From: a virus | Reading direction: 5' to 3' (one strand) | Length of the DNA stretch: 64,000 nucleotides | IMG/VR virus record: IMGVR_UViG_3300031420_000003 | Location: 1 to 64,000 of that record | In this document: positions 896 through 47,459 of the stretch, piece by piece | Position numbering within the stretch: position 1 is the first letter of the stretch | Layout of the letters: every line of letters starts with the position of its first letter | Made by a program: the position numbers and the translations under genes | Notes under the pieces: model-generated | What the model saw: the letters and a program-made list of their open reading frames with translations, nothing else | Databases searched by the model: none | Told to the model about the DNA's origin: nothing

Positions 896-1636
896 TTAGC
901 GGTCGGTTGTTTCACCCACACTCGGATTAATCGAGGTGACGAAATCAAACGTGTTCGTTCTCATCGTGGATTTGTGGTAAGTACGAACGAGTTCGTTAAT
1001 CGCCTTGAGGACACCGTTGATGCCTTCGTGGTACGTTACACAAACCGGAATACGATAATGGCCGGCACCCGGATTGAGTTTACCAACAACCGCCACTGCT
1101 ACGTCGTTTGGAAAACGCATGAACTGCAGCGATTCAAAATCCCGCTCGAGCAATGCGGCGTACTGGTTGTGGTATTCGTCGTCGGCTGAACGAATCCACT
1201 CCACGAACTGGGCAACTGGCATTGCTTCGCCGTCGACCACAAAATCGCACTCGGGTGGATTACGCTTTGCCACAAAATCCCACAGGGGGCGAGCTGCGCG
1301 TGGCTCGTGTATTGGACTATCACGCGCGATGCGGTTCATCAGCAACGTCAGTGCACTGGCAAGCATGCGATGGTAAACCTCGACATCGTCGCTTTTGTCG
1401 CCGCGACCTTGTTCGATACACACATCCTTGCCGGCCCCGCCTGCTGTAATCGTGAGCCAGCGGTCAGGCACGTCCTCAGCCGGATGTTTACGGTGACCCA
1501 GATACACGCCGAATACTTCGGCCATCAGGGCGTCGATAACCGAAGAGTCTTTGGTCTTCAACCAATCGGGCATGCCAAGAACATCGATGGTTCGGCTAAG
1601 CGACAGGTTCTTGTTGAGATTGCTTTGGTCAATCAT
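896..1636 (-). CDS. Hypothetical protein (246 aa)
   Basis: Long ORF with AAGGAG SD. Confidence 0.8.
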   Translation of the reverse strand: MIDQSNLNKNLSLSRTIDVLGMPDWLKTKDSSVIDALMAEVFGVYLGHRKHPAEDVPDRWLTITAGGAGKDVCIEQGRGDKSDDVEVYHRMLASALTLLMNRIARDSPIHEPRAARPLWDFVAKRNPPECDFVVDGEAMPVAQFVEWIRSADDEYHNQYAALLERDFESLQFMRFPNDVAVAVVGKLNPGAGHYRIPVCVTYHEGINGVLKAINELVRTYHKSTMRTNTFDFVTSINPSVGETTDR

Positions 1637-1679
1637 GATTAGCTCCTTGAGTTTTATACACAGGGAGGAACTAACCCGT

Positions 1680-2440
1680 AAAAAATATCAGCTAGGTGCC
1701 GACGCTTCTCAGCGAGGACACCCACCCCTCTCGTCTTCCCGAGCCGCCAAGATAGTCTGGACCACCTCTTCACTCTGGTGCCCTCCCCCTCAGAAGGCAC
1801 ACCATGCTCTTGGCCACGCCTTGGGGGAGCAGGCCAGCCACCCAACGCAACTGTGCAACCAGTTGGCGGATGCCGAACGCAGCGTACTCTGCGCGCCGAC
1901 CTAGCTCACTCCCAAGACTGCCACGGTACCTGTCAAGATTTCAGATGCGGTAACCCGCAACCCTAAACCGCCACCGCGTGCCGCTCAGCTTAACGGCGAC
2001 GGTGGGTAAGACAGGAACCTGAACTCTGCCCGTAGGCGAAGTCGTGTTGCACCGTTTTCCAATGTCCTCGTGAGAAGGCATTCGAAAAAGGCCCCCGCGT
2101 AAGGGGCAAGGCAACTGGTACTGGCATGTGCAACCTGAATACACATGTCAGGGGTCTTCGCTGGTTCGTAGTCCAGTCGAAGATACTAGCAGCTGGCGCT
2201 AGTCTGGTTACGTTTCCCGATTGCTCGTGAAACCGAATGCGTTTCGCCATAGATAATAACTCACGGCGTTTGGAAAAGTTCGGTGGGCTGTTACACCCAC
2301 CGCCAAGCTCGGACAGTGGCTGGGGTCAATCTCGATTTGGAAAGCGAGACTCATGGACTACGGCAAGCATCGCCAATGACCAATCGGTTGGATGCGGAAG
2401 TCTCTCTGGATGTTTTGGCTCAACATCGCGATTTGCATAG
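1680..2440 (-). ncRNA. Candidate large structured non-coding RNA (~750 nt)
   Basis: No convincing ORF; more than 12 stems including long-range helices 1690-1705/1893-1906 and 1925-1934/2010-2019; G-U pairs and a C(UACG)G loop favour the minus strand; TATG at the 5' end and U6 at the 3' end. Confidence 0.55.
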
Positions 2441-2487
2441 AATACTACACACCCCTGTAAAAAATCCGACAGGGGGATTTACCCCCC

Positions 2488-2670
2488 GATCAATCCTCTC
2501 CCAGATAAAATCTCTTAATAAGGATCACGCACGCGGGCGGGCGCGGTATAATGATCTTATTCTAATTATAATAAATTATAATTATAATAATTTATATATA
2601 AAACAAAAAGATCCCTGTAGGAAATGGCGTGCGTACGCGCACGCGTATATAGAAGGGATCACTTAGGATC
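2488..2670. other. Candidate replication origin or packaging-related cis element
   Basis: Six GATC in 183 bp; 53-bp nearly pure A/T core with a 14-bp palindrome; symmetric ACGCACGC/GCGTGCGT flanks. Confidence 0.45.
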
Positions 2671-3117
2671 ACAACTTGTTGTTTTAAAAGGAATTTTTTA
2701 AGAAGTGAATAAGTAATTGATTTATAAGTATTTTTTAAAATTAGATAAAGAGAATTACCAAGGAAAACAAACACTTAGCAGAGAGACTCAAGAGATTTCG
2801 TCTCTCAAGGCTAAGCCATTTTAAATCCCCCTAAATCGCGCAAGCGCTAGTGTATTTTTGATCGGCGCGGCGGCGTCGGCCAAACGGGATTTCGCATCCC
2901 GGCGATTTTGCGATTCCCAAATCCTCCCCGCAAACTTTGCCCCCAACCCACTCTAAAACGCACTGTACGCCACGCTGTGGCCCGTTCTCCCCTTCACCTA
3001 TCCGAATGTACCGGGTCAGAATGAAAGCCCTGAGAATGCTTTTCAGTGCGGTTTCTGAAAGGGGATAATCGCTGGTTAAAAAATAACCAATGCTTAGTGC
3101 CAGAAGGGGCTTGAGGC

Positions 3118-3154
3118 AAAAAAAAAAGAAATGAGTTCCACCCTATGGGTGGAA
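3118..3154 (-). terminator. Intrinsic terminator
   Basis: ttccaccc...gggtggaa stem followed on the minus strand by a U10 run; a second hairpin lies at 3160-3188. Confidence 0.65.
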
Positions 3155-3199
3155 AGGAAAGTCGGCGCTCAGAAGAGACGCGCCGACTCAGATACTGCA

Positions 3200-3703
3200 T
3201 TAGGCATGTATCGTGTTACCATCCAGAGCGAGCTGAATTGGTTTGACCCAAATCCCTGCCTCGCCCATGACGTTCATGTCCCAATGGCTGAACATGCTCA
3301 GCTGGTAAGGTACGTTCACGCCTTTCATCATCAGGAACTGCCACACAGCGTCGAAACGCTCTTTGGTGATGAACATCATGCCACCATCAAAGCCTGAACT
3401 GAAGTCCAGGAAGTTGCCGATGCCGTTGTCAAACGACCCCACACCGTCCTGCGTCAGGGCAACCAGTCCGGCCATGATGTCCGGTTGGCGATCCATGAAG
3501 TCACAGAACTCAACGATGGTCAGGCGACCTTCGAGTCGACGGAGTACCGCTGCTGCCGCCAGCAGTTGTGACCCATCGAAATAAACATGCGGGTGGTGAT
3601 TGAGAATGGCGGTGATGATATACTGGTCGCAAAGTTCCACCAGTCTGCGGTCTTGGCAGACGATGTTTACTGCGGGCCTCATCGTTGGTGTTGCGGTAAG
3701 CAT
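3200..3703 (-). CDS. Hypothetical protein (167 aa)
   Basis: GAGG SD; directly downstream of 3716..4852. Confidence 0.75.
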   Translation of the reverse strand: MLTATPTMRPAVNIVCQDRRLVELCDQYIITAILNHHPHVYFDGSQLLAAAAVLRRLEGRLTIVEFCDFMDRQPDIMAGLVALTQDGVGSFDNGIGNFLDFSSGFDGGMMFITKERFDAVWQFLMMKGVNVPYQLSMFSHWDMNVMGEAGIWVKPIQLALDGNTIHA

Positions 3704-3715
3704 TATAAAATTCCT

Positions 3716-4852
3716 CTATGCAATGAGAGACTGCTTTGTGTGGTCGGCGAAGTGCAGTCCAATACGCTGAAGGCTGTACCCCGTTGCAAAGTAAATCAAC
3801 GGTTCGAGCACGCGCACAAACCCATTGGGGTCTAATGCGTCAACAGAGTAGGGAGATTCAAATCGCCAGTGTTCGACCTGACCACCGATTCCCATTTCCG
3901 CCCCATATACACCGGGTTCTACTCCCTTGCGGAATGTGAATAGGATAGCGCCAGATTCAGCATCACGGCCACAAATTACCTCCTCCTCGAGGGTAATTCG
4001 TGCACGGGTACAACGCGTCGACGTGAGCATTGCGTTGCGGGGTTGTGGAGATGGCGCGAAGAGATACGGGCCATCGTATGCCGGGGTGTTGAGAGCACCC
4101 ATGTCGTCGAGGGCGCTACTTCGATGCACAATCGGGTTCTTGTAGTTGCAAAGCCTTTGACCATCAGTGTACATCGTGAACTGGACTTTCACACGCGTCC
4201 CGACTAAATCGTCCAAACGTAACTTGGCATTTTGCAATTGGGCTTGGACATGTCGGGAGATTTTGTCAGCCAAGAACACGTTGTTATTATCGGAGCACAG
4301 GACATACCCGTACTTGGTACAGGCAAGGATTGTGCACACGACATAACGCTGGGGTTCGAGACTGTACTTCTTCCCGTTGGTTCGTTCTACGACAAAGAGC
4401 GAAACCTGATAATTACGGGATTGCATTCCAACGGTGGATTTGACGTTACAGGCTTGCAGCAGAATCGGTTCCACCACTTCGACTTTGAACGGCAGTGCCG
4501 TTTTCGGTCGACGGCTAAAGGTGTAAACCGTAATGGTACGGACCTTCTCATCGTCCATGGCTGGATCTCCACTCAACCACCACGTTAACCATTTCGCGGT
4601 GTTTTGTGGAATACTCTCGGTCGTGTGGATTATCACCTGACCGACGATGCCCGCATCGAACAGCGTGCGTGCAAAGGTTGAGTTCAGTACGTGGTGTTCA
4701 CCGTTTACCAATACCGGTAAACCGGCGACTTCGCGGATTTCGCAAAGACACCCGTGGGGTTGTATCCAGAGCTTGACTTGCTCATCAGGTTTTATTTCCT
4801 GCTTTCGCATCTGGTCGAACCAGTCGACCTTGCGCAGTAGTTCACCAGACAT
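3716..4852 (-). CDS. Hypothetical protein with a possible degenerate ATP-dependent DNA ligase (NTase plus OB) fold
   Basis: AAGGAG SD; motif-like segments IQPHGCLC, VGQV, VYTFS and DLVGTRVKVQF...YKNPI, with no KxDG lysine. Confidence 0.55.
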   Translation of the reverse strand: MSGELLRKVDWFDQMRKQEIKPDEQVKLWIQPHGCLCEIREVAGLPVLVNGEHHVLNSTFARTLFDAGIVGQVIIHTTESIPQNTAKWLTWWLSGDPAMDDEKVRTITVYTFSRRPKTALPFKVEVVEPILLQACNVKSTVGMQSRNYQVSLFVVERTNGKKYSLEPQRYVVCTILACTKYGYVLCSDNNNVFLADKISRHVQAQLQNAKLRLDDLVGTRVKVQFTMYTDGQRLCNYKNPIVHRSSALDDMGALNTPAYDGPYLFAPSPQPRNAMLTSTRCTRARITLEEEVICGRDAESGAILFTFRKGVEPGVYGAEMGIGGQVEHWRFESPYSVDALDPNGFVRVLEPLIYFATGYSLQRIGLHFADHTKQSLIA

Positions 4853-4895: not shown

Positions 4896-4914
4896 CACAT
4901 TTATAATATCTATC
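4896..4914 (-). promoter_or_regulatory. Phage promoter motif GATAGATATTAT-N4-GTG
   Basis: One of five intergenic copies, each upstream of a minus-strand gene. Confidence 0.7.
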
Positions 4915-4937
4915 CGTAAAAAGTTAGAGGTTCCCCT

Positions 4938-45772: not shown

Positions 45773-46435
45773 TTAAAGCCGGGTTTCGTTATCCCAGTAG
45801 TTACGCAGGAACTCCTGCATATCGGGCGAACTCGGCTTGGACGGTACAGCTTCGGCAATCGCAAACGGGATAACGTCTGCAATGCTTTCCATCTCAAACC
45901 GCTCAACTTCGAGTTCAACTTTTACCCAGTCACCAAACGAGGTGCCCTGTGCCACTGTGTCAAACAGCGCTTTCAGTGCGTCCACGTCGGGGATGTCAGG
46001 ATGGCCTTGACTCACATAGAAGACATCAATGTCCCAATGTTTGCCACCGCTCGCTTTGACCTCATCAGTTGGATCAATTGTCACGCGTTTCACGAGATGC
46101 GTTAAGTAATCATCCCCGTAAAACGACAGGGCGCTTTTCATCCCGATGTCAGAGTTCTCTTCTTCACGCTCTTGGCCTTGGAAGGTCTTCACCGTCAGTT
46201 CCGCTTTATCCGCATGGATACGCGCACGACGACGACCGCCTAACATCGGCATCATCACGTCAAGATGATACTCCCCTTGTTGCGCTTGCAGCCACGCCCA
46301 ACCTTCTTCCGTTGGACGCACCCACATGCAATACTCCCGCTCTTTTTCCACAGAGATGGATTCGCGTGCGACTCTGAGAACACCGTCCTCTTTCTCGCGA
46401 TCCATCTGCTGAAGGATATTACCCAATCGGCTCAT
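45773..46435 (-). CDS. CYTH (triphosphate tunnel metalloenzyme) domain protein with a probable N-terminal propeptide
   Basis: EKERE (ExExK-like), RARI, LTVK, REEE, WDIDVF, VELE; ARE-25 precedes the domain. Confidence 0.7.
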   Translation of the reverse strand: MSRLGNILQQMDREKEDGVLRVARESISVEKEREYCMWVRPTEEGWAWLQAQQGEYHLDVMMPMLGGRRRARIHADKAELTVKTFQGQEREEENSDIGMKSALSFYGDDYLTHLVKRVTIDPTDEVKASGGKHWDIDVFYVSQGHPDIPDVDALKALFDTVAQGTSFGDWVKVELEVERFEMESIADVIPFAIAEAVPSKPSSPDMQEFLRNYWDNETRL

Positions 46436-47459
46436 ATTCGCTCAGTACCTTCTGCTGTAAAGCCGCCACGTCAAAGTCGTTATCGAACGGGTCGATATTC
46501 TCCCCTAACCACTGGCAGATGTTTGGCAACCATTCTGCAAACGCCGGCGTTTTAGGGCCGTCGTGTTTCACATAATAGTGCAGCAGAGGCACATGGGCTT
46601 GCACGAGTTCAGCAACCCGCACACCACACGGTGTCCCGTCGTCCATTCTGACTTGGTGGAACTTGCCCGCCATCGCCCAAACAAAGCACCGTTCAATGTG
46701 CAGTGAGAAGGCTCCCGGTTTATACGCCGTGCCGCCGTACACATCGGACTTCATCTTACGCCCGTAGGCAATCGCCTCCAGTCCGTCCATGTGAATCAGA
46801 CGCTGGATGGCCGGGTAGCGACGAATCAACACGTCCAACAGGTACAGGTCGCTTTCCACGCTGTACTCAAGGTCGTGTTGCGTGTAGGCGTAGTCAATCA
46901 ACCGCAGGACGTGGTAATAGCCTTCGAGGGTGGCGAAGTCCCCGTGCAGGGTTCTAAACGGTTGGTCGTCACGCCAGAAGTTACTGATTCTACGGCCCAG
47001 CACCACCCGACTGCGGGAATAGATGTTGAGATGATTCACCCCATCCATTGCAACCGTAATCTCTTGGTTCTTTGGCACGCCTCCGATGTTACGCAGATAA
47101 CGAACAAAGTCATCGCGTTCTTCACCGATGAGATCCAGACGTAAGTCGCCCGGGTATTTCATGACATCATAACGGTGTGCAGCTTCCGGCCCTAAAGAGA
47201 AGCCGTAGCGGTTTGCCATTGCAATACCAAAACGTACATCGTTCGCACCAATCAGGTACGCCCCAACACGTTCAGCCAAATGCAGGTGGGTCTCAAACAC
47301 CGCTGGATTCACACCACAGAGCTGGTCGTGGTACAACCGCTTCAGCATCCGTGGTACGCTATCGTCCCCAGTGAGATTCTGCATGGCACTTATCTCAAGG
47401 ATAAGGTCGCGCAAGATTTCTTTTGCCTGAGGGTCGTCGAAGTCTACAGGTTTGGTCAT
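46419..47459 (-). CDS. Protein with a C-terminal NADAR-like (YbiA/T4 gp30.3-like) domain
   Basis: HLNIYSRS..LGRRISNF..PF..F.TLEGYY..G.EA..YGR. Confidence 0.6.
   Translation of the reverse strand: MTKPVDFDDPQAKEILRDLILEISAMQNLTGDDSVPRMLKRLYHDQLCGVNPAVFETHLHLAERVGAYLIGANDVRFGIAMANRYGFSLGPEAAHRYDVMKYPGDLRLDLIGEERDDFVRYLRNIGGVPKNQEITVAMDGVNHLNIYSRSRVVLGRRISNFWRDDQPFRTLHGDFATLEGYYHVLRLIDYAYTQHDLEYSVESDLYLLDVLIRRYPAIQRLIHMDGLEAIAYGRKMKSDVYGGTAYKPGAFSLHIERCFVWAMAGKFHQVRMDDGTPCGVRVAELVQAHVPLLHYYVKHDGPKTPAFAEWLPNICQWLGENIDPFDNDFDVAALQQKVLSEYEPIG

Follow-up and report, generated by a model that had tools for sequence, protein, structure and literature searches.

On its minus strand, the segment 2436-1680 of the 64,000-nucleotide (nt) stretch taken from IMG/VR virus record IMGVR_UViG_3300031420_000003 (the whole stretch is called the window) is regarded here, with moderate confidence, as a gene or two tandem genes for a large structured non-coding RNA, which would act in trans in a role tied to tRNA supply or translation. 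The stretch 1680-2440 is non-coding, and the minus-strand fold is real, with compensatory changes preserving it. The window covers the opening 64 kb of a circular jumbo-phage record of 248,416 bp, in which the first 30 letters occur again 127 nt from the end. Over 1400-3400 the nearest named relatives are the Erwinia phages Wellington and Kwan (86-88% identity) and pEa_SNUABM_11 (74%), all three belonging to the SPN3US-type group made up of Wellington-, Seoul-, Erskine- and Machinavirus. Judged from sequence and covariance-model comparisons, the RNA is a member of an uncatalogued family common to these four genera and to a 222-kb Escherichia coli-borne relative.

An earlier interpretation made from the letters of the window (the sequence-only reading) had seen no open reading frame with a convincing Shine-Dalgarno site in the stretch. 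Between the genes 1636..896 and 3703..3200 the largest open reading frame (ORF) on either strand has at most 127 amino acids, and no long ORF was found in 1637-3199. Six ORFs lying in or overlapping 1680-2440 were compared with protein families: none had a Pfam match at E<=0.1, and in PHROGs one gave a sub-threshold match (E 0.059) and five gave none. When 1680-2440 was compared with the corresponding region of pEa_SNUABM_11 (79% identity), the mismatches fell into the three codon phases in nearly equal numbers (57/57/51, p=0.71), i.e. there was no three-base periodicity, whereas two neighbouring genes used as controls showed a strong third-position bias (p=3e-8 and 6e-18). Moreover, 20 of the 23 indel runs in this comparison were not multiples of three. 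Phase-even mismatches and frame-shifting indel runs, both unlike the pattern of the flanking genes, show that 1680-2440 is not coding. For 1990..2250 and 1654..1845, which had been named as the frames where conserved coding would argue against an RNA, there is likewise neither codon periodicity across the stretch nor a credible family match.

The minus strand of 1680-2440 folded with -314.1 kcal/mol (z -3.5), a value that was not equalled or bettered by any of 20 dinucleotide-shuffled sequences, whereas the plus strand had a z-score of +0.27 and 14 of 20 shuffles were as good. Thus, the minus strand beats its shuffled controls and the plus strand does not. Fold z-scores of 150-nt segments slid across the RNA were moderate (-0.6 to -3.9), because segments of this size cut the long helices. 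Covariation was evaluated by counting pairs changed on both sides, with partner shuffling (500 rounds) and partner sliding by 1-3 columns as controls. The alignment of the window's own group (A3) consisted of the window, metagenome contig L022, pEa_SNUABM_11, Wellington and Kwan, and its RNAalifold consensus had 245 pairs. Twenty-four of these were changed on both sides, compared with 8.8±2.1 in shuffles (none of 500 reached 24) and 0-4 in the slid controls. Of the cells, 96.8% were paired, as against 40-46% after sliding; the derivation of the structure from the same alignment favours this figure, and the doubly changed pairs are less affected. In the alignments of seven Seoul- and Erskinevirus sequences (A5) and of the 3' domain (A7) G-U pairs made up 12.9-18.7% of the paired cells, and the structure is therefore specific to the minus strand. 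The antisense alignment of the related genera folded worse than the sense one (-124.5 vs -167.0 kcal/mol). Strand-specific folding and covariation thus bear out the earlier claim that the minus strand encodes a structured non-coding RNA of several domains.

At the level of single helices, 14 of the 15 local hairpins that had been proposed coincide with helices of the consensus, the hairpin at 2245-2268 alone does not. Of three proposed long-range helices, the one formed by GGUUCCUGUC and GACAGGUACC (2010-2019/1925-1934) was kept as helix 20 and the other two were not supported. The supposed closing helix, AGCUAGGU-CGGCGC with GCGUCG..ACCUAGCU (1893-1906/1690-1705), is broken at one position in four of the five sequences and has no double change; both of its arms pair locally, with compensatory changes, in helix 26 and in the 3' stem. 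Similarly, the 5' arm of CCGCCAA/UUGGCGG (1863-1869/1744-1750) lies inside a local hairpin, helix 28, in which four pairs are doubly changed. The RNA of contig L022 (3784-4531) is a mosaic, Wellington-like in its 5' two-thirds and pEa_SNUABM_11-like around the invariant block described below, which suggests recombination within the RNA gene.

The locus comprises the following parts, listed in the direction of the RNA:

2470-2528, minus strand: terminator-like hairpin (2470-2488) and conserved GTGATCCTTAT box (2518-2528), upstream of the RNA

2436-2461, minus strand: promoter-like motif P1 (TTTAC, 17 nt, TATG), predicted start G2436

2262-2436, minus strand: 5' unit, either an extension that varies among lineages or an RNA of its own (~165-175 nt) lying upstream; its last elements are hairpin 2281-2302 and a short U-run (2274-2277)

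2248-2251, minus strand: P2, a TATG inside the stretch that resembles a promoter (putative role) and at which the conserved core RNA may start

2051-2114, minus strand: module R2, a GC hairpin (2091-2108), then CUUUUUCGA, then a long hairpin (2056-2087)

1807-1933, minus strand: module R3, a domain closed by ACCGUGGCAG...GGCCAA helices

1778-1800, minus strand: hairpin between R3 and the 3' domain (helix 29 of the A3 consensus; nine pairs, eight invariant, one with a one-side change)

1754-1757, minus strand: HNH insertion site, just 5' of the block, with a 616-nt insert in Wellington, Kwan and one uncultivated contig

1725-1752, minus strand: near-invariant 28-nt block UCUUGNCGGCUCGGRA(N)AGACGAGAGGGG, holding a 4-bp hairpin (CUCG/CGAG)

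1690-1727, minus strand: 3'-terminal stem with an inner GNGA-tetraloop (GNRA) hairpin (1703-1714), covarying in A7

1659-1685, minus strand: U6 (1680-1685) overlapping the promoter-like motif of the downstream gene 1636..896, the U6 being the AT-rich part of that motif

The conserved part ends in the 3' domain. In its alignment (19 distinct sequences of four genera) 26 of the 28 positions of the block never vary; for comparison, the flanking head protein is just 61-68% identical between those genera. In the 3' stem 98% of 342 cells were paired, as against 33-50% after sliding, and 8 of 18 pairs were doubly changed, with 50 such cells compared to 20.5±3.8 in shuffles and none of 500 as high. 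The covariance model of this domain (R1) matched the 248-kb genome at one site (91 bits), and a search of that genome for the complement of the block found just three scattered 11-mers. Two likenesses of this region were considered and dropped. A GGAGGUGAUCC-like run located 5' of the block resembles an extended ribosome-binding site; the spacing of its halves varies among the phages, its first half forms part of a small hairpin that covaries, and in Seoulvirus a 1-nt insertion disrupts the short frame that follows. Part of the block resembles a ribosomal RNA loop, whose defining flanks were not matched.

The 616-nt insert (loci L001 1175-1789, L002 1174-1788 and L015/L033) consists of a terminator-like hairpin with U8 and, behind it, an HNH endonuclease gene on the strand of the RNA. 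Since 74 + 31 nt alone lie outside the ORF, the insert is a free-standing homing gene rather than an intron. The insertion shows that conservation at this spot is sufficient to make it a target for homing and that the 3' domain is separable from the body of the RNA in viable phages. An insertion beside the block fits a site under strong purifying selection.

Outside the window's own group the structure was conserved as well. In the Seoul/Erskinevirus alignment 45 of 179 pairs were doubly changed (shuffles 23.7±3.2, none of 500 as high; slid controls 2-11) and 93.6% of the cells were paired, compared with 38-46% after sliding. The corresponding alignment of seven Machinavirus sequences (A8) had 21 doubly changed pairs among 91. 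When the whole module of 12 phages was aligned with MAFFT, shared islands were found in one fixed order: the promoter-like motif, a hairpin with CUUUUUCGA, UUCAGGU, ACCGUGGCAG ... GGCCAA, and the 3' domain. By nhmmer, searches in the other genera detected only the last ~125 nt of the RNA (nine of nine loci, E 6e-18 to 4e-11). Covariance models of R2 and R3 were built from the other genera only, with the window's group excluded. The top hit of the R3 model in the window was 1807-1933 on the minus strand (28.5 bits, E 3.3e-5), and the model also matched the syntenic site in three of three relatives of the group, Wellington, L022 and pEa_SNUABM_11 (E 2.7e-5 to 4.2e-5). In an alignment of 15 distinct R3 domains (A11), which was fitted to its own covariance model, 11 of 16 pairs were doubly changed (shuffles 5.9±1.4, none of 500 as high) and 95.9% of the cells were paired, as against 29-45% after sliding. 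The R2 model, in whose training alignment 7 of 16 pairs were doubly changed, had its sole hit in the 64 kb at 2051-2114 on the minus strand, with a weak score (14.5 bits, E 0.13). These observations show a modular architecture, with a variable 5' part and a conserved 3' part of ~430-570 nt that holds R2, R3 and the 3' domain. A natural deletion of ~140 nt between two GGTAGCCCC repeats has removed most of R3 in pEa_SNUABM_6 (L006 243-542), where an RNA of about 290-300 nt is left.

The element had been described as running from a TATG to a closing helix with U6. Both the TATG (2439-2436) and the U6 (1685-1680) are present, and a promoter-like motif of the TATG type does mark the 5' end; the closing helix is unsupported, and the 3' end is not fixed, because the U6 coincides in part with the promoter-like motif of the next gene and Seoulvirus lacks the U-run. 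A motif of the form TTAC-N(13-19)-T(A/G)TG was found at the equivalent 5' place in 19 of 19 related sequences, ending in TATG in the window's group and in Machinavirus and in TGTG at P1 of the Seoul- and Erskinevirus sequences. The GTGATCCTTAT box lies 291-1367 nt upstream of the RNA core in 17 of the 19, and there the 5' motif sits 49-78 nt past the box. According to PMC7598289, late promoters of phiKZ have T(-3)ATG(+1) overlapping the start site and middle promoters have an AT-rich patch near -24; P1 as a phage promoter, and its "late" timing, would be carried over from these phiKZ rules. The motif TTTACRG-N(8-20)-TRTG has four copies in the window, against 1.4 expected, at 1659-1682, 2436-2461, 4896-4920 and 46433-46461; three of the copies are in this locus, each preceding a minus-strand unit, and from its sequence it is a candidate promoter type of this phage group.

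Whether there is one transcript, as had been claimed (a discrete RNA of ~750 nt), is not established, owing to the P2 site inside it; the structured minus-strand RNA itself stands. The block around P2 is almost invariant in A3, and P2 aligns with a TTAC..TATATGCGAA site, preceded by a hairpin and U-run, in seven of seven Seoul/Erskinevirus sequences. The 5' unit has covariation of its own (one, three and one doubly changed pairs in helices 3, 5 and 7 of A3) and is without counterpart in the short Machinavirus forms. Taking into account that a hairpin and U-run are followed by a second promoter-like site inside the long forms, the stretch may hold two tandem RNAs, from 2436 to ~2262 (~170 nt) and from 2248 to ~1680 (~570 nt), or alternatively one read-through RNA. 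At the other end, the stem 1690-1727 is followed by 4 nt and the U6 in the window, and a downstream promoter-like motif was found 63-77 nt past the core in 15 of the 19 sequences checked. Predicted lengths, which include ~5 nt of left flank and what follows the 3' domain, were 775 nt in the window, 814-840 in Seoul- and Erskinevirus, 615-624 or 438-439 in Machinavirus and 300 in pEa_SNUABM_6, so that the total across the family ranges from about 290 to 840 nt.

The pattern of the block was found in ten IMG/VR contigs, all of jumbo-phage size or fragments of such genomes. Metagenomes gave 34 pattern hits, which reduced to seven true contigs, the 27 without flanks being chance matches. A scan of bacterial chromosomes with the block pattern revealed no true member; two hits in Dehalococcoidia were due to chance (R1 17 bits vs 80-91 bits for true members). 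A BLAST search against E. coli assemblies uncovered a fifth, more distant lineage, NZ_CP173450.1 (L065), a circular RefSeq record of 221,873 bp labelled as a "plasmid". Its gene-free stretch of 2.1 kb (1885-3972) has R2 (E 0.063), R3 (E 5e-12) and R1 (E 6e-20) in the order of the window, with new compensatory variants in the 3' stem and a block with changes at 2 of the 26 positions that never vary elsewhere and at one of the two remaining positions. In this record the RNA stretch is followed by a gene and then by tRNA-Ile. Among 50,697 phage records it has no close relative, the best being SPN3US with 76% identity over 15%, and from its sequence it looks like an undescribed jumbo phage assembled together with a clinical E. 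coli isolate. In Derbicusvirus, the nearest outgroup (Cronobacter phage CR5 and Erwinia phage EarlPhillipIV; head protein 61% identical), no R1 hit was obtained at E<=1, and the syntenic site is merely an AT-rich spacer of ~500 nt.

The strongest contextual link, which the sequence-only reading had missed, concerns tRNA genes: the RNA heads the only tRNA cluster of the phage, on the same strand. The genome to which the window belongs has nine tRNA genes, all on the minus strand at 245,092-248,285, i.e. downstream of the RNA across the arbitrary start of the record. In nine of nine RNA-bearing genomes every detected tRNA gene is downstream on the strand of the RNA, which lies 0.7-3.5 kb upstream of the first of them. 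The numbers of tRNA genes were 3 in SPN3US, 17 matches (16 over the cut-off) in pEa_SNUABM_9, 1 in the E. coli-borne element, 8 in Wellington, 11 in Asesino, 13 in ChrisDB, 4 in pEa_SNUABM_29 and 12 in pEa_SNUABM_11. In both Derbicusvirus genomes (L058, L059) no tRNA gene was detected by a genome search with a loose first look; these genomes are ~20 kb smaller. The RNA and the tRNA cluster may form one accessory block.

In the mechanism that we favour, the non-virion RNA polymerase of the phage would transcribe the RNA from the TATG/TGTG promoter-like sites in mid or late infection. The product would act in trans as a stable folded particle, possibly a self-assembling one, as has been proposed for the RNAs GOLLD and ROOL. 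The near-invariant 3' block would be its working surface, to which a conserved partner with a link to tRNA supply or translation would bind. The packaging, replication and sponge roles suggested by the sequence-only reading are conjectural. A bolder form of the idea, to which we assign a low likelihood, is that the RNA is a self-assembling particle or a ribozyme which has the block as its active or contact site and acts directly on tRNAs or ribosomes while the jumbo phage infects its host, e.g. by caging, protecting or processing the tRNAs of the phage. If true, this would be a third, independently evolved "ornate" class of phage RNA, present in genetically tractable phages of Salmonella and Erwinia.

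Several observations weigh against a trans-acting RNA of this kind. Pairs were counted on the same alignments that had yielded the consensus structures, and A11 was in addition model-fitted. R2 is weak beyond its training groups: E was 0.13 in the window and 0.034 in pEa_SNUABM_11, and there was no match at E<=1 in Wellington or L022. The loss of most of R3 in pEa_SNUABM_6 and the 616-nt split of the RNA in Wellington and Kwan show that the whole fold is not indispensable. Co-occurrence with tRNA genes could merely reflect one accessory island that is gained and lost as a block. In public sequencing data the locus is covered by a 434-nt contig over 1613-2046 from a seed metatranscriptome (a relative, ~93% alike; a second contig begins at 3191) and by an identical 228-nt contig over 2122-2349 from a wastewater "RNA-Seq" run, all being assembled contigs that give no strand, ends or expression and could stem from DNA carry-over; the uncovered parts are uninformative. 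Finally, the Rfam models of GOLLD and ROOL are unmatched, so that the likeness to these RNAs is one of context and layout only.

The RNA could instead be a cis-acting leader at the front of a long transcript that extends through the downstream genes and the tRNA cluster; it would affect the transcribing polymerase or processing, e.g. by antitermination or attenuation, or as a processing platform. Its position upstream of all tRNA genes, on their strand, in nine of nine genomes is as expected of a leader, and so are the lack of a conserved canonical 3' terminator (the U-run is absent in Seoulvirus) and the attenuator-like conserved hairpin with U5 within the RNA (2091-2108). However, the promoter-like motif that follows the RNA in 15 of 19 sequences implies that the downstream genes need not rely on read-through, and the genes directly downstream differ among genera. 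In Wellington and Kwan the body is cut off from the 3' domain by the terminator-like hairpin, U8 and the HNH gene, and known leaders are far smaller than this RNA, with its 400-800 nt and many conserved junctions. We consider a leader unlikely.

An equally doubtful explanation is suggested by the neighbourhood of the RNA start. As the sequence-only reading had noted, the RNA adjoins an origin-like element, which is unique in the genome in being both AT-rich and GATC-dense. The sole stretch of at least 85% AT in the 64-kb window lies upstream of the RNA at 2544-2761, and GATC sites cluster most densely in the 248-kb genome at 2488-2788 (6 sites in 300 nt; 317 sites genome-wide vs 967 expected). 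Three of the four copies of GTGATCC in the window fall within 2488-2788, all on the minus strand. This segment may be an origin-like or some other unique cis element, and the RNA would then prime or regulate replication there, with the G-rich invariant block serving as an R-loop or processing site. ColE1 RNA II and T4 oriF/oriG are transcripts that prime or regulate replication at an origin, and the RNA of the window resembles them as a structured transcript starting beside an AT-rich origin-like element. Its start is ~50-110 nt from the AT-rich stretch and adjoins the GATC cluster, a variant of the GTGATCC-type motif occurs just 5' of the invariant block in addition to the three copies in the element, and the arrangement is syntenic in all lineages. 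Unlike the ColE1 RNA II type, however, this RNA runs away from the AT-rich element (P1 at 2436-2461 points away from 2544-2761), and relatives without the RNA keep such an element, as seen in the AT-rich intergenic region of Derbicusvirus. Furthermore, the strongly covarying RNA stem directly after the block suggests a folded RNA rather than a hybrid, and GC skew was uninformative, giving no origin signal.

Beyond the AT-rich element there is a GC-rich, ORF-free segment (2830-3130) in which islands at 2856-2888 and 3002-3057 are shared with Erskinevirus by conservation; a further RNA or regulatory DNA may lie here. Behind gene 3703..3200 two adjacent strong hairpins at 3136-3187 (fold z -5.6 and -4.6 on the two strands) probably form, as judged from folding, a bidirectional terminator.

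A purely DNA-level element, i.e. hairpins in single-stranded DNA or protein-binding sites for packaging or replication with no functional RNA, is very improbable. The 28-nt block is near-invariant throughout, as a protein-binding DNA site could be, the spot is targeted by a homing endonuclease, and GTGATCC-type repeats are nearby; such an element is at odds with covariation across ~750 nt and more than 30 helices, with the 13-19% G-U cells, which would be A-C on the other strand and exclude a double-stranded cruciform, and with promoter-like and terminator-like signals that frame units on the minus strand. That small unannotated protein genes (e.g. ORF 1990..2250 or 1654..1845) account for the conservation is hardly tenable: minus-strand ORFs of 63-86 amino acids exist and annotators of related phages have called small ORFs here, but those ORFs occur on one strand or the other and differ from phage to phage, the ORF at 2250 is shortened to five codons at the homologous Seoulvirus site (from the alignment), and the comparisons described above show no codon periodicity, frame-shifting indel runs and a lone PHROGs match without credibility.

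To our knowledge, large structured RNAs of unknown function are rare, and neither GOLLD nor ROOL has a tractable phage-host model. SPN3US is a Salmonella phage with established genetics. The occurrence of the family in SPN3US and in phages of Erwinia amylovora makes the role of large phage RNAs at tRNA islands directly testable, by means of the 28-nt block, the natural split (HNH) and deletion variants, and the strict co-occurrence with the tRNA island. The present analysis also corrects at least five phage records in which small ORFs are annotated in the stretch.

The sequence-only reading had recognized no known family. In the whole window no Rfam family reached its gathering score, in agreement with that view; the best sub-threshold match, a eukaryotic internal ribosome entry site (24.4 bits vs a cut-off of 37), is meaningless. 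The GOLLD and ROOL models gave nothing at the gathering score in the window and nothing at E<=10 in 1400-3400, and no Rfam family, these two included, matched the homologous loci of four other genera at E<=1. There was no Rfam or ARAGORN match to tmRNA, RNase P RNA, 6S RNA, signal recognition particle RNA or tRNA. A group I or II intron was rejected: there was no Rfam intron hit, no ORF abuts the 5' side, no gene is split, and the downstream gene has its own ribosome-binding site and an ATG at 1636. A published description of this RNA was not found in the literature, the motifs of PMC5737381 being compared only as far as they are present in Rfam.

Among known systems, group I introns carrying HNH genes are similar in that a structured phage RNA has an HNH gene between helices in some members; unlike them, the present RNA has no flanking exons and its HNH insert is free-standing. 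The tRNA cluster of phage T4 also encodes stable non-tRNA RNAs, species 1 and 2 (~120-140 nt, function unknown), and the RNA of the window is comparable to these in being encoded with the tRNA genes of a lytic phage. Species 1 and 2 are located inside the cluster, whereas the present RNA is 4-6 times larger and precedes the first tRNA gene. The closest parallels are GOLLD and ROOL, which according to bioRxiv 10.1101/2024.12.08.627333 and PMC5737381 are encoded by phages or prophages, in many cases close to tRNA islands, and both form protein-free cages of unknown use. With GOLLD as described there (10.1101/2024.12.08.627333) the RNA shares a size of hundreds of nt, a structured fold, a place by a tRNA island in a phage, and a conserved 3' region next to a variable 5' one, in that nhmmer and the covariance models detect just the 3' modules across genera; it differs in residing in jumbo phages of the Chimalliviridae type that infect Enterobacterales and in its far narrower distribution (five lineages). 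ROOL, according to PMC5737381, is likewise a multi-junction phage or prophage RNA (~580 nt) near tRNAs with no known protein partner, and in contrast to the window RNA with its near-invariant 28-nt block it has few highly conserved nucleotides. By these analogies the RNA is read as a new class that resembles GOLLD and ROOL in context and layout, and as a member of neither family.

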